Below the pieces are notes generated by a model, which was not told where the DNA came from, did no database searches, and saw only the letters and a list, made by a program, of their open reading frames with translations. From a virus, in IMG/VR virus record IMGVR_UViG_3300045988_101972, positions 1 to 16,805 of that record: DNA of 16,805 nucleotides. One strand, 5' to 3'. Of the stretch, positions 1-16,399 are shown in pieces. Numbering within the stretch: the first letter of the stretch is position 1; each line of letters begins with the position of its first letter. A program made the translations under genes and the position numbers.

Positions 1-95
1 GTATAATAGTGAGTGTTATTGTGAGGAGTTGGCTGAGTTGTGTTGAAGTTGAAGGCGGAACGTATTACTGGCGACTTGGGCGTGGTTTTTCACTC
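1..95. repeat. Left inverted terminal repeat (95 bp)
   Basis: Bases 1-95 are the exact reverse complement of 16711-16805. Identity stops at 96/16710. Contains tandem hexamers GAGTTG x2 (26-31, 35-40) and TTGAAG x2 (43-54). Confidence 0.97.
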
Positions 96-309
96 ATTGC
101 GCAAGGGTGCGACGTGTGATGAAGACGTTGAAGAGTACGCTAATGTTAGCGGTGGTTTTAATGAGTTTTGTTTGAGGTTTTACGCTCGGTATGATGATAT
201 CGCTGAGGTGGTTCCGGTAGTTGAAGGCCCTTACCGTGTTGATGAAGCGAGGGAGAGGATGGAGTTTATTCTGGGCTTGACGCTTGAGGAACGTGGCGAG
301 GTGGTGTGA
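40..309 (+). CDS. Hypothetical early protein (89 aa); start lies inside the ITR and is uncertain
   Basis: ORF-track ORF. GTG at 40 (or TTG at 43) follows GAGGAG at 23-28. There is no ATG until near the C-terminus. The product is acidic and no family is recognised. No room exists for a conventional promoter upstream. Confidence 0.4.
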   Translation: MLKLKAERITGDLGVVFHSLRKGATCDEDVEEYANVSGGFNEFCLRFYARYDDIAEVVPVVEGPYRVDEARERMEFILGLTLEERGEVV

Positions 310-370
310 TGTATTTTTGATGAGTTTGCTGAAGATTATTTCAAGCGCTTGGGTGCGCTACGCGGCGCGC

Positions 371-399
371 TTGACTGCACGCGTGATAATAGATATGAT
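371..399 (+). promoter_or_regulatory. Sigma-A/sigma-70 type promoter, TTGACT-17 nt-TATGAT
   Basis: TTGACT at 371-376, a 17-nt spacer, then TATGAT at 394-399. It lies about 65 nt upstream of the 463/466 start codon. Confidence 0.5.
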
Positions 400-462
400 G
401 ATTACGACAAGTCAATTCCGAAGATTTTGTAGAAACATATAAGGCCGCTTATAAAAGGGGGT

Positions 463-1023
463 ATGATGTTGAACATATGGCCGCGCAATTTTAGTGAGTC
501 TCATAGCGTGCCGGTATCGCGAAACTCTTTTAACGATGATATTCTAGGAGATAAGCGCGTAAGTCGTGTACTGAGGGGCGTGAAACGGTGTGTCGCTGGC
601 TTGTACCGTGATTCGGAACACGGGGACTGGGAGACGTTTTGCCGGGCCACTGCCCTTATGGGTCGATTCTATTCAAGCAACGGCCCTCAGATTTCATATC
701 GTGAGAGTGTTCTACATGCCGCTGAGATTTGCGCGACACTTAAACCCGGCGACGGGTTCAAGGACGCCGAGAACCGGTCGGACGGTATAGTCACTCTGGA
801 TGGGCTTATTATTGTCCCCAGCTTGATAGCGTGGTGTGCTGTGGCGTGGGTTAAAGGCGGATACGATTTCAGTATGAAAAAGTTTTGGGGGAGTGATTTT
901 TTCTATGATTTTATTATTGAAAAATGTTGTAAATCGTTTGACAATTTAACAGATGAAGTTTATAATGATAAAGACGTAGCCCTTTGGACTACGAAGCAAA
1001 GCATTATATCCAACGAACAGTAA
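463..1023 (+). CDS. Hypothetical early protein (186 aa)
   Basis: ORF-track ORF. AGGGGG at 456-461 precedes the tandem ATGs at 463 and 466, and 466 has the better spacing. No family is recognised. The 3' third is AT-rich and carries an embedded consensus promoter. Confidence 0.6.
   Translation: MMLNIWPRNFSESHSVPVSRNSFNDDILGDKRVSRVLRGVKRCVAGLYRDSEHGDWETFCRATALMGRFYSSNGPQISYRESVLHAAEICATLKPGDGFKDAENRSDGIVTLDGLIIVPSLIAWCAVAWVKGGYDFSMKKFWGSDFFYDFIIEKCCKSFDNLTDEVYNDKDVALWTTKQSIISNEQ
938..966 (+). promoter_or_regulatory. Perfect consensus promoter TTGACA-17 nt-TATAAT inside the 3' end of the preceding CDS
   Basis: TTGACA at 938-943, a 17-nt spacer, then TATAAT at 961-966. An A/T-rich tract (about 895-937) lies upstream like an UP element. 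The next gene starts at 1037. Confidence 0.6.
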
Positions 1024-1036
1024 GGCGGTATCTAAT

Positions 1037-1342
1037 ATGATTAAGCGAACTCGAAACTACTCTGTGGTTAAGGGTGTCCAGCGTGGCGAAAACGGTGAAC
1101 TTGAAAATATCGAGGTCATTGTTGACGGCGCGTGTCGTTCCGAAGAAAAGGCCATGAAGAAGGCGAGGCGACTGAACAAGAACATGTTGCCGGTTCGTGC
1201 CGAGTATCACGCGCAGTTGACTACCCTTGATGATGAAGAGTATTATAAGATTTGCAAGTTTGGAGAAGATACCATTATCGACTACAGGGGTGTCAACGAT
1301 ATTGATACCGTGGTTGAGGATGATATTCTTTCCGAAGAGTAA
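1037..1342 (+). CDS. Hypothetical early protein (101 aa), basic N-half and acidic C-tail; possible DNA-binding replication accessory protein by position only
   Basis: ATG is preceded by AGGCGG (1023-1028) at 8-nt spacing. The C-terminus is VEDDILSEE. It occupies the slot of the small early replication proteins upstream of TP and DNAP in phi29-type genomes. Confidence 0.6.
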   Translation: MIKRTRNYSVVKGVQRGENGELENIEVIVDGACRSEEKAMKKARRLNKNMLPVRAEYHAQLTTLDDEEYYKICKFGEDTIIDYRGVNDIDTVVEDDILSEE

Positions 1343-1386
1343 TAACAATAACCAACCAACGATAAGACAAAGGCGGCATAATTATT

Positions 1387-1836
1387 ATGGCTGACAACAC
1401 CAATACCGATATCACCGTAGCTCAGGGCAACAACTTCAGCGCTAACGGCGCTAACGCGCTCTCCCACTTTTTTAACACCGAAACGATGGAGGGAAAGCTC
1501 GCTCTCTACGCGGCCCTACAGTCCAGCGATAAGGTCGATGAACATTTGAACGAGGTTTTGCACGTCACTAACGTGGCTGCGCAGTCCATTGAGGTTGCGG
1601 ACGAGAAGACCGGTGAGTTGAATCCGTCTACCCGCGTGATTATCCACGCCGAAGAGGGCGACTTTACCGCTACGTCCCCGTCTCTTGCGCGTTCGTTCGG
1701 CACTATGTTCTCGATTTTCGGCACGCCGGATAAGTGGGATGAACCGTTTGTTATGAGGGTGGTCGAAAAGAAGGCGCGTTCCGGCTACAAATTCTTCGAC
1801 ATTGAGCCGGTATTGGACTCTAAGAAGTCCAAGTGA
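1387..1836 (+). CDS. Hypothetical early protein (149 aa); candidate ssDNA-binding protein by position only
   Basis: ATG is preceded by AGGCGG (1371-1376) at 10-nt spacing. It lies immediately upstream of the TP and DNAP genes and is followed by a strong hairpin. The function is inferred from synteny with phi29 gene 5, not from a recognised motif. Confidence 0.6.
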   Translation: MADNTNTDITVAQGNNFSANGANALSHFFNTETMEGKLALYAALQSSDKVDEHLNEVLHVTNVAAQSIEVADEKTGELNPSTRVIIHAEEGDFTATSPSLARSFGTMFSIFGTPDKWDEPFVMRVVEKKARSGYKFFDIEPVLDSKKSK

Positions 1837-1842
1837 TATACT
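1834..1842 (+). promoter_or_regulatory. Extended -10 element TGATATACT (copy 1 of a recurrent motif)
   Basis: TGnTATACT overlaps the TGA stop of the upstream CDS. TTGGAC lies 18 nt upstream (1813-1818). The 10-mer GTGATATACT occurs identically at 8970 and 13890. Confidence 0.45.
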
Positions 1843-1882
1843 AGGTGGAGTGGGCTAAAAGGCTCACACTGCCGCCAAGCAC

Positions 1883-1917
1883 TAGCCCCCTATGAGTCAT
1901 GGCATAGGGGGCTATTT
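1883..1917 (+). terminator. Stem-loop with a 12-bp perfect stem plus a short T tract; likely partial terminator or attenuator before the TP and DNAP genes
   Basis: TAGCCCCCTATG (1883-1894) pairs with CATAGGGGGCTA (1903-1914), with an 8-nt loop, followed by TTTAAT. Only 24 nt separate it from the TP start, so downstream genes need read-through. Confidence 0.55.
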
Positions 1918-1938
1918 AATCTCGGAAAGCGGGGGCGT

Positions 1939-2901
1939 GTGGCTAAACGTGGTAGGAATAACAAACGTCAACAGCGACGCGAAACCATACGCGCACGCTC
2001 TCGGCAAGCGCAATTGAACGAACGCTTGCGTGATTATTCCACGGGGCTCATACCCGATATCAACGACAGGAATCTGGGTAGGTTGACAGTCCGGCAGTTG
2101 GAACAGGTTGCCGGAAGAGTGGCTCAAAGGGTTGAAGAGCAACAAGCAGCGTTACGCGCAAGGGACGCGCGTGTTTTTCAAGCCACGCCGGATGTTACTA
2201 TCACCAAGCTTGACAGAGAGTTGGCTAATCGCCCATTAATCACAGACGAGCAGATTGATAACGCGCCGTCGAAACGACGTAAAACTCTACGTCAACAACA
2301 GCGTAGACGTGTTCGCGCGCGGGAGAAAATCAAGCGTGCGCAACAGTATAACGCTTTTAACTTGCAACAGTACACTGTGGGTGAACTGCGTGACCTCGAG
2401 TCGCGGGGAGAATCACCGTTTGAAGTGCTGGGCGGTCGAGTCATACACGAAACACCCGAAGACAATCTAATCAGAAGTCGTAAGAACGTTTTGGCTAACA
2501 AAACGTGGGTGCGCGAAAAAATCAGGCACGGCCGACGTGATGAACTTGAAGCGTATGTTAAAGCATATGCGGGCGTCGCCGGGATGAAGCCGATTGATTT
2601 GCGCGATTTTTTGCCCAGTAACCTACGCTCTGAAAACTTCCGGCCGCTGACTCTCGATTATCGCAGTGGTGTATATGAACAGAAGCTCGAGTCAATGGGC
2701 GTGACAATCGCCGCAAGATATAGTAGACTCAGCAATAGGGCTAAAATTTGGTTACTCGAAAACACGCCTTTTATGAGCTTGTTGGATGAAAGTACTCATT
2801 ATGACGAAAATCAAAAAAAATGGGCGACAAACGCGGGTACCATGCCCGACGTAAAAAATCAGATAGCAGACTATCTAACTCAGGCGGAACGAACGAAATG
2901 A
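1939..2901 (+). CDS. Candidate terminal (priming) protein, 320 aa
   Basis: Lies immediately upstream of the protein-primed DNAP, 6 nt from it, as in phi29-type genomes. It has very basic segments (MAKRGRNNKRQQRRETIRARSR; SKRRKTLRQQQRRRVRAREKIKR). It starts with GTG and has no in-frame ATG nearby. The genome has ITRs. The call rests on position and composition. Confidence 0.6.
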   Translation: MAKRGRNNKRQQRRETIRARSRQAQLNERLRDYSTGLIPDINDRNLGRLTVRQLEQVAGRVAQRVEEQQAALRARDARVFQATPDVTITKLDRELANRPLITDEQIDNAPSKRRKTLRQQQRRRVRAREKIKRAQQYNAFNLQQYTVGELRDLESRGESPFEVLGGRVIHETPEDNLIRSRKNVLANKTWVREKIRHGRRDELEAYVKAYAGVAGMKPIDLRDFLPSNLRSENFRPLTLDYRSGVYEQKLESMGVTIAARYSRLSNRAKIWLLENTPFMSLLDESTHYDENQKKWATNAGTMPDVKNQIADYLTQAERTK

Positions 2902-2907
2902 GGTGTC

Positions 2908-4374
2908 ATGGCGGTACGTTTGGCGGCGGCTACCGACGGTACGACGCTACTGGACAATGAACTGGGGGCGGTAGGTCTCTCAGCGAACACGGTAATGCAA
3001 CTAACTCAGCGCGACAGTAACACGCGCGTTTATTGCGCTCATGGTTGGTCTGACATTGAACGACTCGCAACTGACTTGTTCCGAATATTACCTCACGCCA
3101 CGTCGCCGCAGTCCAACGGGATACGTGGCACGTTTGACACGCGCGGTCACTTTTACAATCTCGCTGTACGCTGGGACAAAACCATTGTTGACTTTGCAGA
3201 CGTGCGCAATATCACGCGCGATAATGAGGTCACTGAAAGCGCGGCCGATTTTGGGGGGGACAGTGACCTTGAAACCACGTGGAACATAGCCCAGTCGCTA
3301 CTGGCCCACAAACTGCAAGGCACGACCATAGGCGCGGTGGCAATGAACGATTACATCGGCGGCGATTATCGTAGGTTCCGGGAAAAATTCCCGCCATTGG
3401 ACGCGACGGACTACGGGCGTATGAGAGCTAGCTACTTTGGTGCGTACTTACAGGCCGAAGCGGGCGAATATGCCGAGTGCTCTAGCTGGGACGTGAACTC
3501 ATTATATCCGTTCATCATGCGCAACATGCCATTGCCGTATGGGGTTCCGGAATGGTATGACGGTAAGTACGTGGCGGACAAAACCATGCCTCTTCATATT
3601 GATGTCATATCATTTGCCGCCACGTTGAAAAAAAACAAATGCCCGACGCTGACAAACCTGTTGCCGTTATGGGGGTTCGAGCATGTTCGACTGCCGAGCA
3701 CGTTCGGCGTGGTCACCATGCCGCTCACCGAGGTAGACCAGCAGACGTTACGCGAAAACTATGACGTTGATATATATGAGGTTCAAGGTGGCTGGAAGTT
3801 CCGCAGAAGCCAAGGGCACTTTCAGGCGTACGTTGATGAATGGTTTCACGTGAAACAATCCGAGACAGGCACTCGGAAACGTATCGCCAAGCTCATGCTT
3901 AACTCGTTGGTGGGAAAGTTCGGCGCAAGCGTCAACAGGCCCATGATGGAACCCGTCTTAGATGAATCAACGCAAGAGCTGCGGTTTGACGTGAAACCGG
4001 CCAACGCTTTGGCGTCACTCGCGTATATGCCGGTGGCTGCGTATGTTAACGCCTATGGACGGCAGATTTTAACACGTGCGATAAACCAGAACCAAGACAG
4101 AGTCATATACGCCGACACCGACAGTATGATAGTGACTGGATTGGACGTGCCTCATGGCATCGAAGCCGACCAAAGTAAGCTGGGCTTATGGAAAAACGAC
4201 TGCCGATACAGGCGGCTGCGAATATTGGGGCCGCGCAAGTATTGCGGGGAGACCATCGAGGGCGATACCGTCATGAGATTGTCTGGGGTCAAACGGCGTG
4301 ACCCGATACCGTACGACAGTTTCTACGCGGGTAGCAGTCTTATGAACGACTACGGTCAGGAGTTTGTGCTATAA
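2908..4374 (+). CDS. Protein-primed family-B DNA polymerase (488 aa)
   Basis: Motif A SWDVNSLYP (nt 3484 onward). Motif B KLMLNSLVGKFG (nt 3889 onward). Motif C VIYADTDSMIV (D403/D405, nt 4114 onward). YxGA motif SYFGA. KxY motif PRKYCG. The spacings A-to-B (133 aa) and B-to-C (75 aa) match the TPR1 and TPR2 insertions typical of protein-primed polymerases. GAGG RBS at 2900-2903. Confidence 0.95.
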   Translation: MAVRLAAATDGTTLLDNELGAVGLSANTVMQLTQRDSNTRVYCAHGWSDIERLATDLFRILPHATSPQSNGIRGTFDTRGHFYNLAVRWDKTIVDFADVRNITRDNEVTESAADFGGDSDLETTWNIAQSLLAHKLQGTTIGAVAMNDYIGGDYRRFREKFPPLDATDYGRMRASYFGAYLQAEAGEYAECSSWDVNSLYPFIMRNMPLPYGVPEWYDGKYVADKTMPLHIDVISFAATLKKNKCPTLTNLLPLWGFEHVRLPSTFGVVTMPLTEVDQQTLRENYDVDIYEVQGGWKFRRSQGHFQAYVDEWFHVKQSETGTRKRIAKLMLNSLVGKFGASVNRPMMEPVLDESTQELRFDVKPANALASLAYMPVAAYVNAYGRQILTRAINQNQDRVIYADTDSMIVTGLDVPHGIEADQSKLGLWKNDCRYRRLRILGPRKYCGETIEGDTVMRLSGVKRRDPIPYDSFYAGSSLMNDYGQEFVL

Positions 4375-4375
4375 T
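4367..4375 (+). promoter_or_regulatory. Extended -10 element TGCTATAAT overlapping the DNAP stop codon
   Basis: A TGnTATAAT consensus with no good -35. It would start transcription near 4382, at the head of the structured non-coding gap preceding the structural genes. Confidence 0.45.
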
Positions 4376-4381
4376 AGGAAT

Positions 4382-4545
4382 GTGCGGGGCATGCCCCTTG
4401 AATTGACACGCTAGCCCTCATGCGTGGCACGCGGTAAGGCGCGGCATGGGGATGTAAATGGTATGCCATACCCTAGGTGCAAAGAGAGTCCCGGCATGAC
4501 CTACATCATTTGTATGGCCCCATTATTGGGGCCATACCCTTAAAC
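4382..4545 (+). other. Structured non-coding region (candidate leader, small RNA or operator cluster) at the replication/structural boundary
   Basis: No ORF longer than 15 codons with an RBS. Hairpins: GGGG-CATG-CCCC (4386-4397); CCCT(C)ATGC (4415-4423) with GCATGGGG (4444-4451); GGTAT-GCC-ATACC (4460-4472); a 10-bp perfect stem GTATGGCCCC / GGGGCCATAC (4512-4537) with loop ATTATT. GGCATG occurs 3 times and GCCATACCCT twice. Confidence 0.5.
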
Positions 4546-4557
4546 GGAAGGAATCTC

Positions 4558-4926
4558 ATGGACAACGATGAAACCGACGTTACCCCGGACGATACCACAC
4601 CGTCCGATACCGGCGACAACGGCGACGGAGAAGACAACCCGCCCGAGCAGAACCCAGAAACACAGGACAACGATACCGACAAGAGCGCTGACCCGGCCGA
4701 AGCCGACACCGATAGCGACATGAACGCGCGTATCACGGCGCTGGAGTCGGCCATCACGGAAATCTCTCAGACCCTTGCGGAGATTCAGGCCGCAAACGCC
4801 AAGACGGTATTGGGCGGTGGCGACGAGTCCAATGACCTACCCGACGAGGCCGACGCGCTCACCGACGATGACGCTAACGGCACCTATCTTACTTTTGACG
4901 ACCTCTACGAAAAGGATGAAGACTAA
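4558..4926 (+). CDS. Putative scaffolding protein (122 aa, highly acidic)
   Basis: ATG at 4558 is preceded by GGAAGGA (4546-4552). The N-half is D/E/T/P-rich and low in complexity, and the C-half is a predicted helix. It lies directly upstream of the capsid gene with a TAATG overlap, as for phi29 gp7. The track start at 4477 was rejected because it has no RBS and crosses hairpins. Confidence 0.65.
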   Translation: MDNDETDVTPDDTTPSDTGDNGDGEDNPPEQNPETQDNDTDKSADPAEADTDSDMNARITALESAITEISQTLAEIQAANAKTVLGGGDESNDLPDEADALTDDDANGTYLTFDDLYEKDED

Positions 4927-6650
4927 TGGCGACTCCAAACGTGACCAATAAGCAGACGTTACGCCCGCTCACCGATTTTAACAATGTCCAGCTGTTGAAC
5001 ATGATTCGCAACGAGGCCAGTCCGGAATACCAACGTCGTATCCCCGCCGCAACCCAGACCAATATGGATATCACCGTTTCTACGCTCATGTCCAGCACCC
5101 AGTTGAAGAACGAGTTTTACTCCTCGCTGATTAACCGTATCGGCGGCACTATGGTACACTCGTGGAAGTGGTCAAACCCGCTTTCCGTGTTCACCCGCGC
5201 GTCGCAGACGTATGGCGACACGTGGCAGGAAGTCGCCGTGGGTATGCCGCTCGCTCAGGTGTACGACCCGAACGCCGAGTACCTCGGGGCCGACAACTTC
5301 CGCAAGTGGAAAGTCGACGTGGACTCGCTCTATCACCGTCTCGACTTTGCGCATTTTTACCCGGTCACCACCGATGATAAAACCCTTCGTCGTGCCTTTA
5401 CGTCTGACAATGGCCTCTCTTCACTGACCTCCCAGCTTATCCAGTCGTGCTACAACGCGGCCGAAGTTGACGTTTTCGAGGCGCTGTGCCACATGTTTAC
5501 GCAGTACGCGCGACTGGGCGGTTATTGGCGTGTCCACATGGACGCCGACCTGAACAAAATGACCAGTACTCAGGATGAGGCGCGCGGATTGTTGCGGCAG
5601 ATTCGCGCGTGGGCCGACAGTCTCAAGTTCGTCTCAACCCGGTATAACGCGCGTCACATGCCCACGTTTGCCAAGCCCGACGAGTTAGTGCTGTTTTGTT
5701 CTCCCGAGGTCAAGTCGGCTTTGGACGTTCAGGGTCTCGCTACCGTGTTCCATCGTACCGACGCAGAGCCGACTATCGACCGTATTATTGTCGTGCCCGA
5801 GGACAGATTCGGCATCGACGGTGTTCAGGCGATTCTCACGACGGACAAATTCCTCATTGACATACCGGTTGTCGAGGAGATGACTCAGCAGACCAACCCC
5901 GTCAATATCAACAGCGTTAACAATTTTTTGCATATGCAACGAATTATCTCGGTGTCGGGTTTCGCCCCGGCCGTGCTGTTCTGGAACGGCGCCGGTTCTA
6001 CGGATAACGTCGTACTTCCGGTCGGCACCGCCGCGACCACGCCGAAGTTCGCGCTGAAGCTTTCCGCCTATGGTGAGGGTGTAACCACGCCGGAGAACGT
6101 GACACGTGGTGGCGCGGTACAGGTCGAGGCTGATACCACCATTACCAATGACGGTCAGGCGTCATGGCGTTCCGGTGCCGTCAAGTATTCTATCGGCGCG
6201 ACCGACAAGAAGCTCTCAGAATGGACGTATATCAGCCCGACGGGTGTATTGGTGGTCGGTATCGATGAGGCCAACACCGTCGTTCCGGTGCAGGCGACTG
6301 CCGATTACATCAACCCGGCTACCCCCGAAGTCCCGAACACGGTGAGCGCGTCCCTTGACGTGCCCGTGGTTGGAGACGGTGTTATCGGGTTCAGTCCGAG
6401 TATTGTTGCGTCCATTACTGTTGACGCCGTTTCGGTCGAGGTTGGTAAGACAGGTCAAGCGCACGCCACTGCCGTGATGATTGACGGCCGTAAAATCGAC
6501 GTGACCAAGCAGGCCGCGTGGACTAGCGCCGCCACTGCGACGGCAACAGTGGATAATACCGGCCTAGTCACCGGCGTGGCCGCCGGTTCTGTCAAACTGA
6601 CCGCCGCGCTGTTCGGCGTCAGCGGTCAGGGCACTGTGACAGTCGCCTAA
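4926..6650 (+). CDS. Major capsid protein with a C-terminal bacterial Ig-like (Big_2-type) domain (574 aa)
   Basis: Remembered similarity to phi29 gp8 (for example LINRIG and YNAAEVD segments). The C-terminal 80 aa (ITVDAVSVEVGKTGQAHATAV...VTGVAAGSVKLTAALFGVSGQGTVTV) have the Big_2 pattern. The gene is followed by a strong terminator. Confidence 0.9.
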   Translation: MATPNVTNKQTLRPLTDFNNVQLLNMIRNEASPEYQRRIPAATQTNMDITVSTLMSSTQLKNEFYSSLINRIGGTMVHSWKWSNPLSVFTRASQTYGDTWQEVAVGMPLAQVYDPNAEYLGADNFRKWKVDVDSLYHRLDFAHFYPVTTDDKTLRRAFTSDNGLSSLTSQLIQSCYNAAEVDVFEALCHMFTQYARLGGYWRVHMDADLNKMTSTQDEARGLLRQIRAWADSLKFVSTRYNARHMPTFAKPDELVLFCSPEVKSALDVQGLATVFHRTDAEPTIDRIIVVPEDRFGIDGVQAILTTDKFLIDIPVVEEMTQQTNPVNINSVNNFLHMQRIISVSGFAPAVLFWNGAGSTDNVVLPVGTAATTPKFALKLSAYGEGVTTPENVTRGGAVQVEADTTITNDGQASWRSGAVKYSIGATDKKLSEWTYISPTGVLVVGIDEANTVVPVQATADYINPATPEVPNTVSASLDVPVVGDGVIGFSPSIVASITVDAVSVEVGKTGQAHATAVMIDGRKIDVTKQAAWTSAATATATVDNTGLVTGVAAGSVKLTAALFGVSGQGTVTVA

Positions 6651-6665
6651 CCTGCGATATAATAA

Positions 6666-6701
6666 AAGGGAGTGTTTCACGTGAAACACTCCCTTATTTT
6701 T
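6666..6701 (+). terminator. Rho-independent terminator after the capsid gene
   Basis: A 15-bp perfect inverted repeat, AAGGGAGTGTTTCAC / GTGAAACACTCCCTT (6666-6695), followed by ATTTTT. Confidence 0.85.
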
Positions 6702-6720
6702 ATGACGAAAAGAGGTAGTT

Positions 6721-8970
6721 GTGCTAAGAGATATCAACCCTAACGTCGAGGCGACGTTTAACTGGGCTCAATGGACACCGAACACGTCGTTGAAACTCTG
6801 TAACGTGCCGTGGGATAGCAGTTACCGCGACCTAGCACGGTTCGAGTCGCCGCAGAAACAGCAGGAGTGGTTTGACCGACAGCCCGGCGTCAGTGGGGTG
6901 CATGGAGTCATGCATGTGTTTGGGCAGCCCGTGCGCGTCGAACTACCGTTTAACGAGGCGTCTAACTACAACTATGTTGTGGTTCATAACGATTACTCCG
7001 ATTTGGAGGCTCCTCGATATTGGTATTATTTCATCAACCACGTGGACTACATCAGTGCGTACACCACTCAGCTCACTGTACAGTTGGACGTTTGGCAGTC
7101 GTTTCAGCATCGACTTAGGTTTGGGTCGTGCTACGTGGTTCGCGGTCACATCGGCATTGCCAACGAAAACCAGATGAGGGATTATGGCCGTAGTTATCTC
7201 GCGCTACCCGAGGGGCTGGACACCGGTAGTGAAATGGTGACGGTAAACCAACAATACAAGTCTCTTGTCGGCATGGACGGGAAAAACCTGAACTACGGCG
7301 TAATAGTCGTGAGCACGGTAGATTTGTCAGCGGACGCGGGCAGTCAGGAAAAACCGTCTCTCACTACTGCGGGCGGCTCTCTCTTCGAGAACATGGCAAA
7401 CGGGGCCGAGATACTGTACTTTAAGGACATTCAGGCCATCCAAGTGTTTATGGGAGTGGGGTCTACTTTTTCGTGGATAACACAGGGTATTGTGTGCATG
7501 TACATGATCCCCTCTTTAGACGATGACTTTCTCAAGAAGTCCGGCTATGTCGTAGATAAGCTTTTTGGGAAAACACTCCCCTCGGAGTTAAACAATCGTA
7601 TCTACCGTTTCCCCCAGTCGGCCACAAACGCGCCCAGCAGATATGAGGACATTATTACCATTAATGATTTTCGCGACAACTTTAATATCCCTGAACGTTA
7701 TAAAAACCTTAAAAAACTCAAGTGCTACCCCTACTCCACTGTTGAATGCACTTGCCTGAACGGGACTAATATCACCTATAAGCCCGAAAACATCCAAAGC
7801 GATAATCTGGTTATCAGAGAGGTTCATAATTACGCGCCCAATGGCGCGCGCTTGAACTTTTATCCGGTTGGATACAATGAGGCGGGTGCAAGCGAGATTG
7901 TTCCTCTTGATAAAAACAATGGGTTGCCTATCGACAGCGGAGAAATGTTGGACGCCGCGTTTGGCATCAGCAACTTTCCCCAGTTCGTAATTGTCAACAA
8001 TGGTGCCCAGTTGGCAATAGCAAACAGTGCCTACACTCGCTCCTACAGCCAACAGTCCGCCGACTGGACATATCAAAAAGCGCAGATGGGCGTTAGCCAG
8101 TCTCTTGCGGCCACGGCCGTGCAAAACCGGTACAATACCCAAGCCAACAAACTCGCTATCGGCAACCGCAACGCCAATAACGCAATTCAAGCGACGGCAC
8201 TTAACACCGGACTGGACAACACGTCATATATCAACAATCAGCGAGCCGACCTCGCACAGCTGAACAACGTGGCTAACGGCGTGGTCGGAGTGGTGGGTAA
8301 CGCCGCTTCGGGCAACGTCGGGGGTGCGATATCCGCGCTGGGTGGTGCGGTCATGAATGGCGTCAACACCGAGTCCAACCGCATCATCAACAATACCGCC
8401 GCCCAACTCTCCACTGCCAACTCTCTGAGTACTAACGCGGCTACGACGAGTCAGGCCAACACGTACGGCTCTCAGACTACGGCGCTTTCAAACCAGTTGG
8501 GCCAAAACATGGCGGACATGAACGCGGACTACGCGCAACGTTCCGCGTTTGGCGACTATCAGAACACTATCGCCGGAGTTAACGCACAGGTCCAGCAGAT
8601 GCAGTTGACGCCCCCTACCACGTCCGGTGCTATCGGTGGAGACGGATTCAATCTCGCCAACGGCATTATCGGAGTGCTGGTGCGATTCAAGACGTGCGCA
8701 CCCTCAGCTCTGCGGAGCGTCGGAGAGTACATGTTGCGCTACGGGTACTTTGTCCAGCGTTTCATCACGCCGCCGCAATCGCTGGAATGTATGACCAAGT
8801 TCTCCTACTGGCAGATGCAAGAGTGCTATGTGCGAGGCGACTTGCCCGAGCAGTATCGGCAGACCATTAAGGGCGTGTTCGAGTCCGGCACTACTGTATG
8901 GGCTGACCCTGATGATATCGGAGTGACCGATTGGGCGGATAACGACCCATTGCCGGGCTTCTCGTTCTAG
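6721..8970 (+). CDS. Tail knob / distal tail tube protein, phi29 gp9-like (749 aa)
   Basis: GTG start with GAGG at 6712-6715. The N-terminal pattern LCNVPWDSSYRDLARFESPQKQQEWF and YWYYFINHVDYIS...QLDVWQSF, the mid pattern KCYPYSTVE and the C-terminal LRYGYFVQR...GTTVWADPDDIG resemble phi29 gp9 from memory. It has a long Q/N/A/G-rich central region. Confidence 0.8.
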   Translation: MLRDINPNVEATFNWAQWTPNTSLKLCNVPWDSSYRDLARFESPQKQQEWFDRQPGVSGVHGVMHVFGQPVRVELPFNEASNYNYVVVHNDYSDLEAPRYWYYFINHVDYISAYTTQLTVQLDVWQSFQHRLRFGSCYVVRGHIGIANENQMRDYGRSYLALPEGLDTGSEMVTVNQQYKSLVGMDGKNLNYGVIVVSTVDLSADAGSQEKPSLTTAGGSLFENMANGAEILYFKDIQAIQVFMGVGSTFSWITQGIVCMYMIPSLDDDFLKKSGYVVDKLFGKTLPSELNNRIYRFPQSATNAPSRYEDIITINDFRDNFNIPERYKNLKKLKCYPYSTVECTCLNGTNITYKPENIQSDNLVIREVHNYAPNGARLNFYPVGYNEAGASEIVPLDKNNGLPIDSGEMLDAAFGISNFPQFVIVNNGAQLAIANSAYTRSYSQQSADWTYQKAQMGVSQSLAATAVQNRYNTQANKLAIGNRNANNAIQATALNTGLDNTSYINNQRADLAQLNNVANGVVGVVGNAASGNVGGAISALGGAVMNGVNTESNRIINNTAAQLSTANSLSTNAATTSQANTYGSQTTALSNQLGQNMADMNADYAQRSAFGDYQNTIAGVNAQVQQMQLTPPTTSGAIGGDGFNLANGIIGVLVRFKTCAPSALRSVGEYMLRYGYFVQRFITPPQSLECMTKFSYWQMQECYVRGDLPEQYRQTIKGVFESGTTVWADPDDIGVTDWADNDPLPGFSF

Positions 8971-8979
8971 TGATATACT
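8971..8979 (+). promoter_or_regulatory. Extended -10 element TGATATACT (copy 2), 6 nt before the portal ATG
   Basis: GTGATATACT at 8970-8979. TTGCCG lies 18 nt upstream (8950-8955). The ATG at 8986 is where a transcription start would be expected. Confidence 0.5.
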
Positions 8980-8985
8980 GGAGAC

Positions 8986-9948
8986 ATGTCTAGGTCGAGG
9001 AAAAATCAGAATCGTAGGGGCGGCGGCGTGCATCCCAGTGGCAATTATGCTAAAACGCGCGCCGTCGCCCTTGATGATATGTATTATCACTTGCTGCGCG
9101 AACTCGCGTTGAACCGGTTCAAATGGCATGGGTTGCCTCCCACGGTTGATGAACGTTGGATGGAGACGTGTCTGCTGGACTATAGTCTCTGCCTGTTTTT
9201 CTACGACAGGCGTATCGGTTCGTTTTTGGCAACTCAGGCGGCTTATCAAGGCCGCTTGAATCTCTACAATAATCCAACCGAGTTTTCCCCAGTCGGGGTT
9301 AACTATCATTACAAGGTTCTCTCGGCGGCCAACGAGTGTGTGCCCATCTGGGATAGTCGCACGCGGTGGCCGTTCAATGATATTCTCTGGATGTACGCCC
9401 GACGTTTGGCGGATATCGACAAGGCGTATCAAGTCAACTTGGACGGGTTGAAACTGCCGACGTTTATCACTGCCGACCAGCGTACCAAGCTCACGGTGGA
9501 AAACATTCTGCACCAGCAGCAAGACGGGCAATCGTTTATCATCGGCTATGACTCGCTCGACCCTTCCAGCATGTTCCAGCCATGGCCTAACACCACGCCC
9601 TATTTGTTGGACAAATTCATCCAGCAAAAAACACAGGTGACCAATGAGGCGTTGAGTTATCTGGGCATTCAGTCCAGCGGCACGGAAAAACAGGAACGTT
9701 TGATAGGCGCTGAGGTTGCTCAGGCCAACGAAAAGACCGACATGTTTCGACTCGCTTTTTTGACGGCGCGACAGGAAGGCGCACGACTGATTAACAGGAT
9801 GTATAACCTGGGCGTATGGGTGGAATACGCGGATACGCAAAGCTCTGGTGTGCCGAACGCGATTGACAATACGCCATCCGGCGGCAACACCACTACGGCA
9901 ATCGGTTCGACAGGCTCTCTTGGAAACGGAACAGGTGGTGTGGTATGA
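8986..9948 (+). CDS. Portal / upper collar (connector) protein, phi29 gp10-like (320 aa)
   Basis: Size and remembered motifs match gp10 (FKWHGLPPTVD near the N-terminus; LSYLGIQSSGTEKQERLIGAEV). Its position is between the tail knob and lower collar genes. Confidence 0.85.
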   Translation: MSRSRKNQNRRGGGVHPSGNYAKTRAVALDDMYYHLLRELALNRFKWHGLPPTVDERWMETCLLDYSLCLFFYDRRIGSFLATQAAYQGRLNLYNNPTEFSPVGVNYHYKVLSAANECVPIWDSRTRWPFNDILWMYARRLADIDKAYQVNLDGLKLPTFITADQRTKLTVENILHQQQDGQSFIIGYDSLDPSSMFQPWPNTTPYLLDKFIQQKTQVTNEALSYLGIQSSGTEKQERLIGAEVAQANEKTDMFRLAFLTARQEGARLINRMYNLGVWVEYADTQSSGVPNAIDNTPSGGNTTTAIGSTGSLGNGTGGVV

Positions 9949-10727
9949 CACAAGACCTAAGCAAGTGGGGTACGCGCGTACCCCCCGAATACACTGCCAC
10001 ACTGGGCAGTGTCATCGACATGGGCTATAATACTGATGATAAACTGCATTTATCCTCCGATTATTACCCGATTTTTGACGAAGCCCACAGGGCTGAGTTG
10101 AACGATAAAATCTGCCAGAACTTCATGTTGCGCGAAATCGGCCAAGAGACCGTGCAACAGTTTGTGTTTTACTTGGGAACGACGTTAAATCAGATTATGC
10201 CGTATTTCAATGAACGTTACAGGACGCTGGCGCTGAAATATGACCCATTGGTCACTATGGAAGTGACCAATGAAAGCCTGTCCAATACCGTAGCCCAGTC
10301 CAGCGGCAAAACCAGCGCCTCTCAGGATAGTGCAACCCGAAGTTCTTCGGATAGCACCAGTTCGAGCAGTACCAAGTCCCAGTCCTACGACTCGGAAGTG
10401 CCCGCAACCGGCGTGCAAGGTGACTTTGCTCGATACGCGACTCATGCCAATCAAGCGCAAGCGGATACGGACGGCAGTAGCCATAGCACGCAAGACTCCT
10501 CCTCCCAGTCTCATAGCACATCCAGCACAGAGTGGCAACACGACGCTACAGACGGGAGCACCAAGTCCCACACGTCGGGCCGCTCTCAGTCCGCAATGAG
10601 CCTCATTGCCGAGTATCGCAACGCAATCATCAACGTGGATATGGAAGTCATACACTCGCTCGAACCGTGCTTCCTGCAAGTCTGGGGGTCGTATGATACT
10701 ATTTTTGGCGACAGTCCAATATATTAA
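9945..10727 (+). CDS. Lower collar protein, gp11-like (260 aa) with a Ser/Thr-rich insert
   Basis: ATGA start/stop overlap with the portal gene and AGGTGG RBS at 9932-9937. The N-terminal LREIGQETVQQF...IMPYFNERY...KYDPL pattern is typical of Picovirinae-type lower collar proteins, recalled from memory. Synteny agrees. Confidence 0.7.
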   Translation: MTQDLSKWGTRVPPEYTATLGSVIDMGYNTDDKLHLSSDYYPIFDEAHRAELNDKICQNFMLREIGQETVQQFVFYLGTTLNQIMPYFNERYRTLALKYDPLVTMEVTNESLSNTVAQSSGKTSASQDSATRSSSDSTSSSSTKSQSYDSEVPATGVQGDFARYATHANQAQADTDGSSHSTQDSSSQSHSTSSTEWQHDATDGSTKSHTSGRSQSAMSLIAEYRNAIINVDMEVIHSLEPCFLQVWGSYDTIFGDSPIY

Positions 10728-10738
10728 GGAGGCAATGC

Positions 10739-11374
10739 ATGATATATAATAATGCGATTATTCCTCGGTTGGCCCCAAGACCGGTGCCCACGTCAGTGCC
10801 TTTTACTTACCGTGACGGCATCACCACGCTGGAGCTCATTGAGTGCGTCAAACGCAATCTGGACACACTCCAGAGCGAATTTAACGGCGTGGTTGATGAA
10901 GTCAATAAAACACTATCGGGCGTAGACGATTCCCTGAACAACGCTCTGGATACCATGAGCGCCGAACTTGAGTCATTGCGGGTGGAACTTATCCGGCTTA
11001 TCAATGAGGCGCAAGGCAGTGGCGTATACCCAAACGTGGTCTACGGCAACGACACCAGCGCATTGCAGATTATGGGCGACGTGTACGACAATACGCGCTA
11101 TTATGGTCTGTTCGCCCGGGACTACGACACTATGGAAATCAGCGCTCTGGATTATGACACGCTCGAAACCCCGGCACGACGGTATGACCTACAAGGCTCA
11201 CGCAAACTAAACCCAGTCCTCGGAGACTTTACAGGTCGTGAGGATTTTTGGGCAACGTTGCCAACTCAGCCGGAAACACCGCAATATGAACCGTTTGCGA
11301 CGAAAAAGTACGTTGATGATAATTTTATGACGCTCAACCCCACTGTAGACCAGTTCGACCCGAGGAAGGGATGA
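10739..11374 (+). CDS. Tail appendage / fibre-associated protein (211 aa), coiled-coil
   Basis: AAGGAGG at 10726-10732 with 6-nt spacing. It has a heptad-like segment (LDTLQSEFNGVVDEVNKTLSGVDDSLNNALDTMSAELESLRVELIRLINEA) and a fibre-type motif, FATKKYVDDNF. Its position follows the collar genes. Confidence 0.55.
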   Translation: MIYNNAIIPRLAPRPVPTSVPFTYRDGITTLELIECVKRNLDTLQSEFNGVVDEVNKTLSGVDDSLNNALDTMSAELESLRVELIRLINEAQGSGVYPNVVYGNDTSALQIMGDVYDNTRYYGLFARDYDTMEISALDYDTLETPARRYDLQGSRKLNPVLGDFTGREDFWATLPTQPETPQYEPFATKKYVDDNFMTLNPTVDQFDPRKG

Positions 11375-11378
11375 CACA

Positions 11379-11684
11379 ATGCCCAGCACCAATAAAACAG
11401 CCAATTATGCGTTATCCCAGTTCTCGGCGGGGGATAAACCGAGTTTTCTGCGCGACTATAACTCGGATATGGCGACAATTGACGCCCAGATGAAGAAAAA
11501 CGCCGACGCCGCCGCGTCCGGGGGGCATGTTGACGCGTACACCAAAGCGCAATCCGACGCCAGATACGCGCCGAAAACGACGACGCCCCCGGACGATACC
11601 GCTCTCGGCGTCACCGCGGGTGACTTTGATAGGCTATACATCGACTCTGACAATATTGTGCGTTTCAAGCCAAAAACAGCGTAA
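11379..11684 (+). CDS. Short fibre-like protein (101 aa) sharing an N-terminal anchor with the next gene
   Basis: GAGGAAGGG RBS. The N-terminal 41 aa are about 50 percent identical to the product of 11719..12582. It carries the fibre motif DAYTKAQSDARYAPK. Confidence 0.6.
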   Translation: MPSTNKTANYALSQFSAGDKPSFLRDYNSDMATIDAQMKKNADAAASGGHVDAYTKAQSDARYAPKTTTPPDDTALGVTAGDFDRLYIDSDNIVRFKPKTA

Positions 11685-11718
11685 TAGAGTAATTGCCAAC
11701 AACAAGGAGATAGATATC

Positions 11719-12582
11719 ATGAGCAGTGTCAATAAAACAGTACACTACGGGCTCTCGCAGTTCGGGGACGCCGATAAACCGTCATGGCGCGGAGACTACA
11801 CGGGAGACATGGCAAAAATCGATACGGCAATGACGGAAAACAAGAACAGCGCACAAACCGCCATCACCAACGCCAACAATGCCGTAACTCAGGTCGGTAC
11901 CGTGAAAGCCACGGCGGACGCAAACAAGGCCATGCTTTCGGCGATGGGCGTCAACGACACGACCGAAGCCACCGGGTTTAAAAACCGGGTCAACGCGACA
12001 AATTCCAAAGCCGACTCAGCCATTAAAAATCTGACAGCTCTGGGGGCTGATACGGAAGTCAAGGCGACGGCTCTCGCAAAGGAGCTCTCGGATAATACGG
12101 CAAACGTGCAACAGGTGACAACCCAGCTTACAGGCAAAGCCGATTTGTCCCAGGTGTACACGCGGACTCAGGCCAACAGCACGTTTGAGACTGTTAACGC
12201 CGCAAACGCCGCGCACAGCGCTATTAACAACGACCTTAGCAGCAAGGCCAGTTCTGTTGACCTCGATACCGCCGTAGGACGCGTCGACGCCATCGAAAGC
12301 ACGTTTTTTGACAAAAACCTTATCCAGCGAATTAATGTCAATGGAGTGACGGAAGATAACGGCCTCTACACAGTCAGACTCACCCAGCCAACTGGGACAG
12401 ACACTGACCCGACTGTGATATGGACTCAGAGTCACGCCAATACTGACACTGAGAAGGCTTACTTTTGGGAAATCTGGAACGTTACGCGCTCTTCGGTGAC
12501 AGTTCGCCCGAAAACAAACGAAGGCGCTTGGGTTTCGGGAAAACACACGATTAGAGGTTTTCTCATTGTAGCATGGTTCTAA
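11719..12582 (+). CDS. Tail fibre / receptor-binding protein candidate (287 aa)
   Basis: ATG at 11719 is preceded by AAGGAG (11704-11709). The track start at 11527 was rejected because it overlaps the previous CDS and has no RBS. The protein has the shared anchor, an Ala/Asn/Thr-rich helical shaft and a distinct C-terminal globular part. Confidence 0.65.
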   Translation: MSSVNKTVHYGLSQFGDADKPSWRGDYTGDMAKIDTAMTENKNSAQTAITNANNAVTQVGTVKATADANKAMLSAMGVNDTTEATGFKNRVNATNSKADSAIKNLTALGADTEVKATALAKELSDNTANVQQVTTQLTGKADLSQVYTRTQANSTFETVNAANAAHSAINNDLSSKASSVDLDTAVGRVDAIESTFFDKNLIQRINVNGVTEDNGLYTVRLTQPTGTDTDPTVIWTQSHANTDTEKAYFWEIWNVTRSSVTVRPKTNEGAWVSGKHTIRGFLIVAWF

Positions 12583-12590
12583 CCGTTCCG

Positions 12591-12614
12591 ACACCCCGCC
12601 TCATGGCGGGGTGT
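12591..12614 (+). terminator. 10-bp GC-rich stem-loop after the fibre gene (weak terminator or RNA-stability element)
   Basis: ACACCCCGCC-TCAT-GGCGGGGTGT, followed by TATCAT, which is a poor U tract. Confidence 0.4.
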
Positions 12615-12641
12615 TATCATATCGAGAACAGGAGCAAAGGC

Positions 12642-13859
12642 ATGGCAGTTGACTTTAAAACATGGGTAAAGCAAACCGAAAACCACTTTTGGGATATGGA
12701 CGGCAGTTGGGGCCCCCAATGTTGGGACCTGTGGGCCAAGTATTGCATGGATGAATACGGGTGCAGTGTTCAGGATTGCGTCACCCCGACAGGTTGGGCA
12801 GGGGGATTGTACGCTAATCATCCAGTGAGCGCAAGAGTCGGGGAGATTTTCGAAAAAAAAGACAACACGTGGGAGCCTATGCCCGGCGACGTTGCCATAT
12901 GGCAAGTCTGTTATCCCAACTATCCGTCAACACACGTGGCCATTGTCGTTGACGGGATACAAGGCGACTCCATCGACGTGCTCACCCAAAACCCGGAGCC
13001 AAGCGTTCATAAACTACTCCCATTGCAGAAATCATGTATCGGATATCTGCATCCACGTAAAAAACCGGACGGGGGAGACAATAACAGCGGGTCAAACAAT
13101 ACAGGTTCAAACAATCCGGGCAACACGTCCAGCAGTGACGCGTGGATACAGCAACAAGGGGATAATCTTATCTACCATTATCGAGACAACGACAGTGGCG
13201 CGGGTACGCTGATTTTTTATAAGGCCACAGCTCAGACATGGACCGCCAAAGGCAGTGCGAAAGCCCCCAACGATTCAAACGGACAGGCCACGCCGTCTGT
13301 AGGCAACGGCAAAAGCAGTTACGCTCTCTACTGCATCGGCACCGTGGAAAGCTCACTACAATGGGATGCGGTTGAGTTAGCCAACATGCAGGGAATTGGC
13401 ATTGCGCAATGGTCGTTTGACAGGCGACTGGACGTTTTGAACGCCATGAGGAAAGCCGACCCAACAGGCTATGAGACGTTTGCCAAAGCGTGCCCCGAGA
13501 TAGCGTCGCTCATGGATGATGACGGGGTGTTTACGCGCCCCTTGACGGCAATAGAATCGGCGGCGTTCAAGACATGGGCGCAACGCCCCGAGTCACATCA
13601 GGGACAACGAAACCAGTTCGAGGCAGACTACAACGGATATCACCATGTGTATGACGACATCAAAATGCAGATACTGTGGGCGTCGGCATATCATCAGGGC
13701 CCGGCTTACGCGGAAGTGTTGCCAAAAGCGACAACGTTGGACGGGTTGCTGGCCAATCTGCTTAATGACGGCGTTTTCGGGCAATATCCCAATCGATATC
13801 AGACGGTGTATAATCTGTTGGTTGTCTGGGATGGGACTAGCGCCCCGCCGAACTTTTAG
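12642..13859 (+). CDS. Virion-associated peptidoglycan hydrolase: N-terminal CHAP domain plus C-terminal lysozyme / lytic-transglycosylase-like domain (405 aa)
   Basis: ATG at 12642 with AGGAG at 12630-12634. CHAP signature: GPQCWDLW (Cys), THVAIVV (His), TQNPEP. The linker is Gly/Asn/Ser-rich. The C-terminal domain has GTVESS...GIGIAQWS, resembling the E-S / G-x-x-Q motifs of SLT-like enzymes. It occupies the slot of phi29 gp13. Confidence 0.8.
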   Translation: MAVDFKTWVKQTENHFWDMDGSWGPQCWDLWAKYCMDEYGCSVQDCVTPTGWAGGLYANHPVSARVGEIFEKKDNTWEPMPGDVAIWQVCYPNYPSTHVAIVVDGIQGDSIDVLTQNPEPSVHKLLPLQKSCIGYLHPRKKPDGGDNNSGSNNTGSNNPGNTSSSDAWIQQQGDNLIYHYRDNDSGAGTLIFYKATAQTWTAKGSAKAPNDSNGQATPSVGNGKSSYALYCIGTVESSLQWDAVELANMQGIGIAQWSFDRRLDVLNAMRKADPTGYETFAKACPEIASLMDDDGVFTRPLTAIESAAFKTWAQRPESHQGQRNQFEADYNGYHHVYDDIKMQILWASAYHQGPAYAEVLPKATTLDGLLANLLNDGVFGQYPNRYQTVYNLLVVWDGTSAPPNF

Positions 13860-13890
13860 TTATCCACAATATTATACACATATCCACATG

Positions 13891-13899
13891 TGATATACT
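13891..13899 (+). promoter_or_regulatory. Extended -10 element TGATATACT (copy 3), 6 nt before the ATPase ATG
   Basis: GTGATATACT at 13890-13899. There is no SD sequence before ATG 13906. Upstream repeats: TATCCACA (13861, 13881) and TATACACA (13873). Confidence 0.5.
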
Positions 13900-13905
13900 G
13901 TGATT

Positions 13906-14994: not shown

Positions 14995-15034
14995 CTTTCA
15001 AGCACAACAAAATAAAAAAGAAAAGGACAAATCA

Positions 15035-15403
15035 ATGCAACACTATATAGCACCACTTATAATCACGGCCGCGTTCATTATCATGGATTATGGTACCGGC
15101 GTCGCAAACGCGATTATGCACAATCAAGTGAACAGCGAAAAAATGAGAAACGGATTATGGCACAAATTCGCGTACGTCATAGTAATAAGTACTGCCTCCC
15201 TCATAGAGTACGGAGCCCAATGGCTTGAGCTAGGGTTCAATCTCCCCCTAGTTATACCGGTGATAGTATCCATTTGTCTGATTGAAGTCACATCCATTCT
15301 GGAAAACTGCACTAAAATCAACCCCGAACTTAAAAGCAACAAGGTACTGAACGTTTTCAGTGAAGCCCAGAACGGAAAGACAGACAATAACAATAATCAT
15401 TAA
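15035..15403 (+). CDS. Holin (122 aa), Phage_holin_4_1-like
   Basis: AAGGA RBS at 15023-15027. Three hydrophobic segments. Family hallmarks are MDYGTGVANAI near the N-terminus and LIEVTSILEN. The C-tail is polar. It lies directly upstream of the endolysin. Confidence 0.85.
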   Translation: MQHYIAPLIITAAFIIMDYGTGVANAIMHNQVNSEKMRNGLWHKFAYVIVISTASLIEYGAQWLELGFNLPLVIPVIVSICLIEVTSILENCTKINPELKSNKVLNVFSEAQNGKTDNNNNH

Positions 15404-15408
15404 ATGTA

Positions 15409-15417: not shown

Positions 15418-15461
15418 AATCTCGACAATAGCACCGACCACGACAGAGAGGAATATTGATT

Positions 15462-16301: not shown

Positions 16302-16305
16302 TATC

Positions 16306-16395: not shown

Positions 16396-16399
16396 GACA

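Follow-up and report, generated by a model that had tools for sequence, protein, structure and literature searches.

To our knowledge, the prohead or packaging RNA (pRNA) of phage phi29 is the only RNA component of any viral DNA-packaging motor, and it is a workhorse of RNA nanotechnology. A 2014 study singled it out as the one natural RNA known to assemble into rings of identical copies (PMC4201828). A 2024 review of phi29-like phages, which covered BadAztec, BD811P, Curtobacterium and Arthrobacter phages, treated pRNA as exclusive to phi29 and the Bacillus phages related to it (PMC11476376). A 2025 survey with Infernal enlarged the set by 12 pRNAs of Salasvirus members and unclassified phages (Cytobacillus phage Bfsp1, for example) and mentioned no host outside the Bacillaceae (PMC12670572). 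We found no report of a pRNA outside the Bacillaceae phages in the literature searched. The locus described here bears on a decades-old question, namely whether other phi29-like phages package their DNA with or without RNA. It is a gap between two genes (4375-4557) in a stretch of viral DNA of 16,805 bp, positions 1 to 16,805 of IMG/VR record IMGVR_UViG_3300045988_101972, hereafter the window. By analogy of structure and context, the gap likely encodes a plus-strand non-coding RNA of ~155 nt that is a divergent counterpart of phi29 pRNA.

The gap lies between the genes for a DNA polymerase and a scaffold-like protein. An earlier note, written from the letters of the window, had called it the longest non-coding stretch of the genome and had offered three readings: a pRNA analogue, a structured late leader, or a cluster of operators. 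By our gene calls the gap is 183 nt long and is indeed the longest intergenic region. The inverted repeats listed in that note are all present where it placed them. They include GGGGCATGCCCC at 4386-4397, a bulged stem (4416-4422/4445-4451) that encloses CGCG-GTAAGG-CGCG (4430-4443), GGTAT-GCC-ATACC (4460-4472), and a perfect 10-bp stem, GTATGGCCCC/GGGGCCATAC (4512-4537); GGCATG occurs three times in the gap, as had been observed. The plus strand of the gap has a minimum free energy (MFE) of -70.3 kcal/mol (z = -2.5 relative to dinucleotide shuffles, with 1 of 200 shuffles folding as well). The minus strand folds about as well, with a similar MFE, so thermodynamics alone cannot tell the nature of the feature.

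Comparison with relatives was more informative. A capsid-protein scan of IMG/VR yielded 80 related contigs, and 78 distinct loci span the gap. The contigs form clade A, with capsid proteins ~95% identical to that of the window, and clade B (~76% identical). A sister clade, clade C, comprises RNAs like that of the Bifidobacterium phage BD811P2. The length of the gap is 184-190 nt in all 78 loci, compared with 183 nt in the window. In clade B the flanking proteins have diverged (58% identity at the polymerase C-terminus, 44% for the scaffold protein), and the alignment of the gap consists of conserved blocks broken by paired substitutions. The RNAalifold consensus has 45 pairs, 24 of which show compensatory changes. 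The core test used a trimmed alignment (A2) and a curated structure of 36 pairs. Here, 98.7% of pair cells are paired, versus 31-40% in controls with the 3′ partners shifted by 1-3 columns. Changes on both sides occur in 18 of the 36 pairs, and the observed covariation score was reached by none of 500 shuffles. The RNAs of clade C are 97% paired, with compensatory changes in 23 of 39 pairs. Covariation in homologous gaps was among the checks named in the earlier note, and the helices are kept by compensatory changes in the relatives. A covariance model built from clades A and B (R1) matches the window only at 4382-4505, with 109.5 bits.

The RNA is predicted to extend from 4382 to 4537 on the plus strand, and it folds into a domain I (~4384-4504) followed by a linker and a 3′ hairpin. 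Domain I is closed by a bulged helix similar to the A helix of pRNA, whose 5′ strand (4386-4414) comprises P1 (4386-4395), P2a (4397-4399), P2b (4402-4408) and P2c (4412-4414), and whose 3′ strand (4473-4502) comprises P2c (4473-4475), P2b (4478-4483), P2a (4486-4488) and P1 (4493-4502). Its four segments contain 21 pairs, 9 of which have changes on both sides across clades, and there is one conserved mismatch in P1. The pair 4402-4483 is an A-A mismatch in this genome; the eight remaining clade A relatives have A-U, and clade B has G-C. The earlier note had read the start of this region as a local hairpin, GGGG-CATG-CCCC. As a conserved fold this does not hold, given that GGGGCAUGCC (4386-4395) pairs at long range with GGCAUGACCU (4493-4502); the hairpin GGGGCAUGCCCC was rejected because its loop positions covary with 4493-4498. 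The same helix accounts for two of the three copies of GGCATG, given the palindromic nature of CATG.

A single unpaired nucleotide, C4415, separates the closing helix from the C helix (4416-4422/4445-4451), in which compensatory changes were found for 5 of 7 pairs. The C helix leads through an internal loop on the 5′ side only, CGUGGCA (4423-4429, 7 nt), to the E helix, CGCG/CGCG (4430-4433/4440-4443, compensatory changes in 2 of 4 pairs), which is capped by the 6-nt E loop GUAAGG (4434-4439). A 1-nt bulge, G4444, lies between the E and C helices on the return strand. The junction AUGUAAAU (4452-4459) between the C-like and D-like helices is single-stranded in all clades, and its start, AUGU, is kept in clades A and B and in one further relative (L189). 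The D-like hairpin GGUAU-GCC-AUACC (4460-4472) adjoins P2c of the closing helix with no spacer. Its loop becomes UGCCA (4464-4468) if the U-A closing pair opens. In clade B, this hairpin is GCG(U)-AGCCA-(A)CGC, and the closing pair covaries between U-A and C-G (alignment pair 89-95).

A linker of 9 nt (4503-4511), unpaired in the consensus fold, connects domain I to the 3′ hairpin, GUAUGGCCCC-AUUAUU-GGGGCCAUAC (4512-4537), in which 8 of 11 predicted pairs covary. This hairpin may be an analogue of domain II or of a terminator, and no U-tract follows it in the clade of the window. It can be likened to intrinsic terminators or RNase III hairpins, as its stem is stable, rich in G+C and located where a transcription unit ends. 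Such a hairpin would explain only the last 26 nt, and neither the multi-helix domain of 120 nt nor the kept loop GUGAUU of clades B and C. The 6-nt loop reads GUGAUU in those clades (e.g. ~4877-4882 of contig L082) and AUUAUU in the window (4522-4527), and the stem covaries freely. Conservation of a loop on a variable stem is unusual for a mere terminator and suggests that the loop is recognised by something. The earlier note had also pointed out that the last two hairpins share a base and flank, GTAT...ATACCCT; this is true of this genome and its closest relatives, and the feature is absent from the next clade.

The strand of the element is fixed by G-U pairs, which are frequent in the curated core (e.g. 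GU in 67/74 and UG in 65/74). On the other strand each of them would become a C-A mismatch. The plus-strand RNA is therefore the selected molecule, and a minus-strand RNA was rejected on the same grounds despite its similar MFE. The same evidence bears on whether the repeats could act in DNA, as operators for an early/late switch protein comparable to p4 of phi29 or as simple terminators and promoters, with no RNA structure under selection. The palindromes of this genome are perfect, the gap lies at the early/late boundary, and a ribbon-helix-helix protein is encoded just upstream in the Arthrobacter relatives, all of which would suit such operators. The p4/p6 switch region of phi29, with operators between A2c, A2b and A3, is likewise rich in inverted repeats and located at an early/late boundary. 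However, that region separates divergent operons and acts by protein-DNA binding, whereas selection in the window is on pairing in the RNA of one strand, including G-U pairs that would be mismatched in a cruciform of the other strand or in a symmetric operator. The palindrome sequences differ between clades while the pairing is kept, with double changes in half of the core pairs, and the helix 4386-4395/4493-4502 spans ~100 nt, unlike any dimeric operator. As judged from the alignment, the gap holds a structured plus-strand RNA and not DNA operators. The operator cluster proposed in the earlier note is unsupported, and we consider a function at the DNA level highly improbable.

We compared the fold with the phi29 layout given by the Rfam RF00044 (Phage_pRNA) consensus, bearing in mind that the full phi29 RNA has 174 nt and includes a linker and a 3′ hairpin ending in U's. 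Both RNAs are encoded by protein-primed podoviruses with a gp10 connector and a gp16 ATPase, both have a domain I of ~120 nt with paired ends, and in both a linker and a 3′ hairpin follow that domain. The A helix has 22 bp with a bulge in phi29 and 21 bp, also bulged, in the window; J(A/C) is 1 nt and J(D/A) 0 nt in each. The C helix comprises 9 bp plus a 1-nt bulge in phi29, 7 bp in the window, and 6+3 bp plus a 1-nt bulge in BD811P2. The CE loop, confined to the 5′ side, has 9 nt in phi29 and 7 nt in the window. The E helix is 4 bp and the E loop 6 nt in both. The D helix has 6 bp in phi29 and 4-5 bp in the window, with a D loop of 5 nt in both, and BD811P2 combines a 6-bp D helix with a 5-nt loop. 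The E loop conforms to N-U-R-A-N-N in phi29 (UUGAGU), the window (GUAAGG) and most lineages examined, and clade C has the 7-nt loop UGAGAAU. The RNA of BD811P2 is closer still to phi29 pRNA than that of the window, and its junction between the C and D helices is 4 nt, AUUU. Measured by tree-edit distance, the consensus structures of the window and of BD811P2 are both nearer to the phi29 pRNA structure than ~99.9% of 1500 MFE folds of random genomic windows from five phage genomes, a background that represents random sequence and not natural RNAs.

Neighbouring phi29 pRNA molecules contact each other through their loops, AACC in the CE loop of one pairing with GGUU in the D loop of the next. 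The corresponding loops of the window, UGGCA in the CE-like loop (4425-4429) and UGCCA in the D loop, are proposed kissing partners that can form five Watson-Crick pairs (P ~0.003 for random loops of these sizes). Five pairs are also possible in BD811P2 (ACCAC/GUGGU) and in Arthrobacter phage Mendel (CAGCU/AGCUG), and loops of the Curtobacterium phages are complementary over 3-5 bp around a GC core. Pairing is kept in 98.6% of cases at the four kissing pairs proposed for the 71 distinct RNAs of clade C. Where CE position 4 meets D position 5, 57 of these RNAs have G-C, 7 have A-U and 7 have G-U; A-C never occurs, and there is no mismatch (Fisher P 2.6e-6 for the association, in a non-phylogenetic test). 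The A-U state is scattered over at least 4-5 separate neighbourhoods of sequences, the nearest relatives of which have G-C or G-U. Bacillus pRNAs use 2-5 kissing pairs (PMC4201828) and follow a rule of a GG/CC core with additional A/U pairs (PMC12670572), which the loop pairs found here match. Sequence cannot separate intramolecular from intermolecular pairing of the loops.

A trans-acting phage RNA with another job, such as an early-late regulator, a host-defence decoy or a scaffold, would resemble pRNA only in shape. It would fit the strong conservation, the independent transcription unit found in clade C (see below) and the lack of detectable sequence homology to pRNA, and three-way junctions with loop-loop contacts are known in unrelated RNAs. 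However, the similarity to pRNA goes element by element, beyond topology, and the loop pairs obey the rule of Bacillus pRNAs. The phage also carries both of the proteins that pRNA bridges in phi29, and the position of the RNA after the polymerase gene mirrors that in phi29. We therefore regard another trans-acting role as unlikely. The RNA probably works like pRNA, as the analogy with phi29 suggests, and would then be a very divergent homologue of it.

Upstream of the fold, an extended -10 promoter-like element already named in the earlier note, TGCTATAAT (4367-4375, plus strand), overlaps the last Leu codon and the TAA stop codon (4372-4374) of the polymerase gene. Only two exact matches to TGNTATAAT occur in the window, one of which is this element. 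TGnTATAAT is invariant across clades A, B and C, though the C-terminal residues of the polymerase vary; in every case it includes a YTA Leu codon, the TAA stop codon and a T after it. BadAztec1 contains TGCTATAGT. The element is 8 nt upstream of a conserved GC that precedes the first helix and 10 nt before P1. With this spacing, transcription would start 1-3 nt before the fold, similar to the situation in phi29, where the pRNA promoter likewise adjoins the first helix. The predicted start of transcription is at ~4382-4383.

Together with the U-tract UUUUAUUUU that comes after it, the 3′ hairpin of clade C forms a terminator, past which there is a second conserved extended -10 element, TGATATAAT (CATGATATAAT), then a ribosome-binding site (RBS) and the scaffold gene. 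By these signals, the RNA of clade C is a self-contained transcription unit with its own promoter and terminator and a second promoter downstream. In the Arthrobacter, Curtobacterium and Rhizobium phages examined, a small open reading frame (ORF) lies between the polymerase gene and the RNA, and two genomes of the Arthrobacter group (L170 and L173) have an extra ORF between the RNA and the scaffold gene. The intervening ORFs, together with the terminator and promoter of clade C, indicate that the RNA forms an independent module rather than the untranslated region of one particular gene. The small ORF upstream of the RNA encodes a ribbon-helix-helix DNA-binding protein in Arthrobacter phages (4676-4933 in L084, 910-1143 in L209) and is unannotated in the Curtobacterium and Rhizobium relatives; the Bifidobacterium-type clades, including the window, lack this gene.

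These observations also bear on whether the structure is a cis-acting leader or attenuator of the late scaffold-capsid operon, with the 3′ hairpin or a protein bound to the fold setting late expression and no function in trans. In the window and clades A and B, the scaffold start codon lies 20-23 nt after the 3′ hairpin (20 nt in the window), the RBS is within 10 nt, there is no U-tract, and no second promoter fits, so that any late transcript begins at or upstream of the promoter of the RNA. The RNA must then either lie upstream on the late transcript or terminate before it. A structured late leader was the second reading of the earlier note, and the short distance between hairpin and scaffold start in this genome agrees with it. 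Relatives in which a terminator and a promoter, or an ORF, intervene argue against a mere leader: the clade C RNA ends in a U-tract terminator, with the scaffold gene served by its own extended -10 element, and an extra ORF follows the RNA in the two Arthrobacter-group genomes. Nor are a pRNA-like three-way junction and covarying loop complementarity expected of a leader. Purine-riboswitch-type tuning forks are similar to the window RNA in combining a three-way junction, two arms with complementary loops and then a hairpin and RBS. They differ in that the closing helix here has at least 21 bp and is not switchable, and in that one loop partner is an internal loop; the sister-clade RNA also has its own promoter and terminator, and no Rfam riboswitch matched. 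Searches of the gap with Rfam riboswitch and leader families gave only sub-threshold matches (E>=2, 10.7-13.5 bits), located over the 3′ part and the 3′ hairpin. A purely cis-acting leader therefore has a small probability in our judgement, and of the three readings in the earlier note the pRNA analogue is the best supported, by the covarying fold, the pRNA-like layout, the complementary and covarying loops, the gene order and the sister-clade transcription unit.

The genome around the gap is consistent with a pRNA-dependent motor. The window is a complete linear phi29-like genome, as judged by a perfect 95-bp inverted terminal repeat at its two ends (1-95 and 16711-16805), and all of its major genes are on the plus strand. 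They include a Phi29-type single-stranded DNA-binding protein (SSB) gene (1387-1836), an ORF of 320 amino acids (aa) in the position of the terminal protein (1939-2901, no family match) and, directly upstream of the gap, a protein-primed family B DNA polymerase gene (2908-4374; Pfam DNA_pol_B_2, 6.2e-30; PHROG 1907, 1e-58). Transcription of the window thus passes the SSB gene at 1387, the ORF at 1939, the polymerase gene at 2908, the promoter and the RNA at 4382. The left early operon of phi29, read leftward, has genes 5 (SSB), p4, 3 (terminal protein), 2 (polymerase) and 1 with small ORFs, then promoter A1 and pRNA. The order of SSB, terminal-protein-position ORF, polymerase and RNA in the window matches that of phi29. 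The map positions differ, with the pRNA gene at the left end in phi29 and the RNA of the window internal, co-directional with all genes and at the early/late boundary, because the early block is inverted in phi29 and co-directional in the window.

Downstream of the gap, the first late gene is the scaffold-like gene, which encodes an acidic protein of 122 aa (ATG at 4558, to 4926; RBS GGAAGGA at 4546-4552) and is followed directly by a Phi29_MCP-family capsid gene (4926-6650; Pfam Phi29_MCP, 7.6e-89). The earlier note had already named a gp10-like portal and a gp16-like ATPase, and Pfam confirmed both as Phage_connector and Podovirus_Gp16. The gp10-type portal, or connector (8986-9948, 3.3e-43), has a strongly basic N-terminus, MSRSRKNQNRRGGG, and is the presumed docking site for the RNA. 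An N-terminal RKR of the phi29 connector is needed for pRNA binding. The gp16-type packaging ATPase (13900-14994, 6.6e-45), which covers profile positions 5-317 of 331, is the presumed partner of the A-like helix. Other genes encode a gp9-type tail knob, a lower collar, a holin and an endolysin. Searches of the window for tRNA and tmRNA genes gave none.

We hypothesize that the extended -10 element at the end of the polymerase gene, which is observed and conserved, would start transcription at ~4382. The transcript would adopt the fold shown by covariation, with the 21-bp bulged helix, three-way junction, C/E arm and D hairpin of domain I, the 9-nt linker and the 3′ hairpin. By analogy with phi29, UGGCA of one molecule would pair with UGCCA of the next to close an RNA ring. 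Following the phi29 model throughout, this ring would be seated at the portal vertex of the prohead, where the gp10-type protein has its narrow and basic end. Its protruding closing helices would dock the gp16-type ATPase, which would pump in the terminal-protein-capped genome, and the RNA would depart before tail attachment. In the clade of the window, the same promoter probably also feeds the late operon by read-through of the hairpin, and the RNA may be released by termination or by processing in the linker.

Several observations weigh against identifying the RNA with pRNA. A search with RF00044 at E<=10 drew a blank for the window, the isolated 201-nt gap and the BD811P2 RNA, as did one at gathering for five relatives; phi29, as a positive control, scored 145 bits. 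Other Rfam families gave no meaningful match in these searches either. The earlier note had foreseen such a miss. R1 in turn finds nothing in phi29, BD811P2 or BadAztec1, even in search spaces of ~140-150 nt, and with an effective sequence number of 1.08 it is too sequence-locked to cross clades. With these misses the RNA cannot be filed in the curated pRNA family by sequence, and, as neither sequence nor covariance models reveal similarity to known pRNAs, the case for homology is made by architecture and context only. The C/D junction has 8-10 nt here versus 3 nt (UUU) in phi29. Loop complementarity in clade B is GGC/GCC, three G-C pairs with a chance expectation of ~0.2, though it reaches 5-6 bp in three members. 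The clade of the window differs from phi29 in having neither a U-tract terminator nor a separate late promoter, and it has no room for a promoter before the scaffold gene, so the RNA could work within the late mRNA. In this clade it would either be released by inefficient termination or processing, or also be the 5′ part of the late transcript.

Some lineages also fit poorly. In the RNA of the BadAztec1/BadAargau2 type, the closing helix covaries, but the inner 50 nt are nearly invariant and can be drawn either in the pRNA-like form or as a different junction. No clean pRNA-like layout was identified upstream of the scaffold gene in L193 or in L196, L198, L200 and L203. In the latter four (~2440-2660) the same position has a shorter conserved structure, a 9-bp helix around a 4-bp hairpin with the loop AAGCCA, followed by a large hairpin, and this may be a reduced or different RNA. 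In Rhizobium phage RHph_N3_8, which has a Gram-negative host, a 155-nt gap occurs at the same position (5589-5743 in L086). Its single sequence can form a similar arm-plus-hairpin fold with possible loop complementarity UGUUG/UAACA. A loose structural descriptor (A/C/CE/E/D with at least 4 bp of kissing) was rejected as a test, having returned 18-63 matches per genome. The true sites tied for the top in the window and BD811P2 and were not separated from chance, and phi29 pRNA fell outside the top five.

The nearest isolates by capsid protein are the Bifidobacterium phages BadAztec and BD811P (38-43% identity), then Arthrobacter and Curtobacterium phages and one Rhizobium phage. The cultured relatives infect Actinobacteria (Bifidobacterium, Arthrobacter, Curtobacterium), in contrast to the Bacillaceae hosts of the phi29 group. 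Neither the whole genome (megablast/blastn, near mode) nor the gap (distant mode) had a DNA match among GenBank phages, and the genome records inspected for relatives have no RNA annotated at this locus. If the RNA is a pRNA, the RNA-bridged motor would be ancient and widespread, and hundreds of natural variants with covarying kissing loops would become available for structure-function work and design. Tentatively, and with less confidence than in the assignment itself, we suggest that pRNA-dependent packaging could be ancestral to the wider phi29-like lineage, with a class unrecognisable by sequence in phages related to the Bifidobacterium, Arthrobacter and Curtobacterium isolates, and perhaps to the Rhizobium phage. 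In the clade of the window, the RNA might then be both leader and packaging RNA, with one promoter coupling the supply of RNA to that of prohead proteins. The cultured phages BD811P2, Mendel, Pize and Ayka make the question of a pRNA directly testable. If the RNA is not a pRNA, it is still a new and very well-supported phage RNA family at the early/late boundary.

Other features of the window concern its genes and termini. Two identical Rfam sR2 matches (17-73 and 16733-16789) are spurious and correspond to the terminal repeat. The polymerase ORF is short (488 aa), and its alignment to polymerase profiles begins only at about profile position 180. Its layout with the preceding ORF (320 + 488 aa) is shared with BadAztec1 (321 + 469 aa) and BD811P2 (320 + 445 aa), and the polymerases of the Arthrobacter and Curtobacterium relatives are longer (547-590 aa). 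At the junction of the capsid and tail-knob genes, a near-consensus promoter, GTGACA-16-TATAAT (6636-6663), is immediately followed by a strong, terminator-like bidirectional hairpin of 13 bp (6666-6695). Four plus-strand copies of the 9-mer TGATATACT are present, at 1834-1842, 8971-8979, 13891-13899 and 15817-15825. One copy ends 7 nt before the ATG of the portal gene (8986) and another adjoins the start of the ATPase ORF (13900). Leaderless and short-leader mRNAs are common in Actinobacteria, and the four copies may be extended -10 promoters that give rise to such mRNAs.

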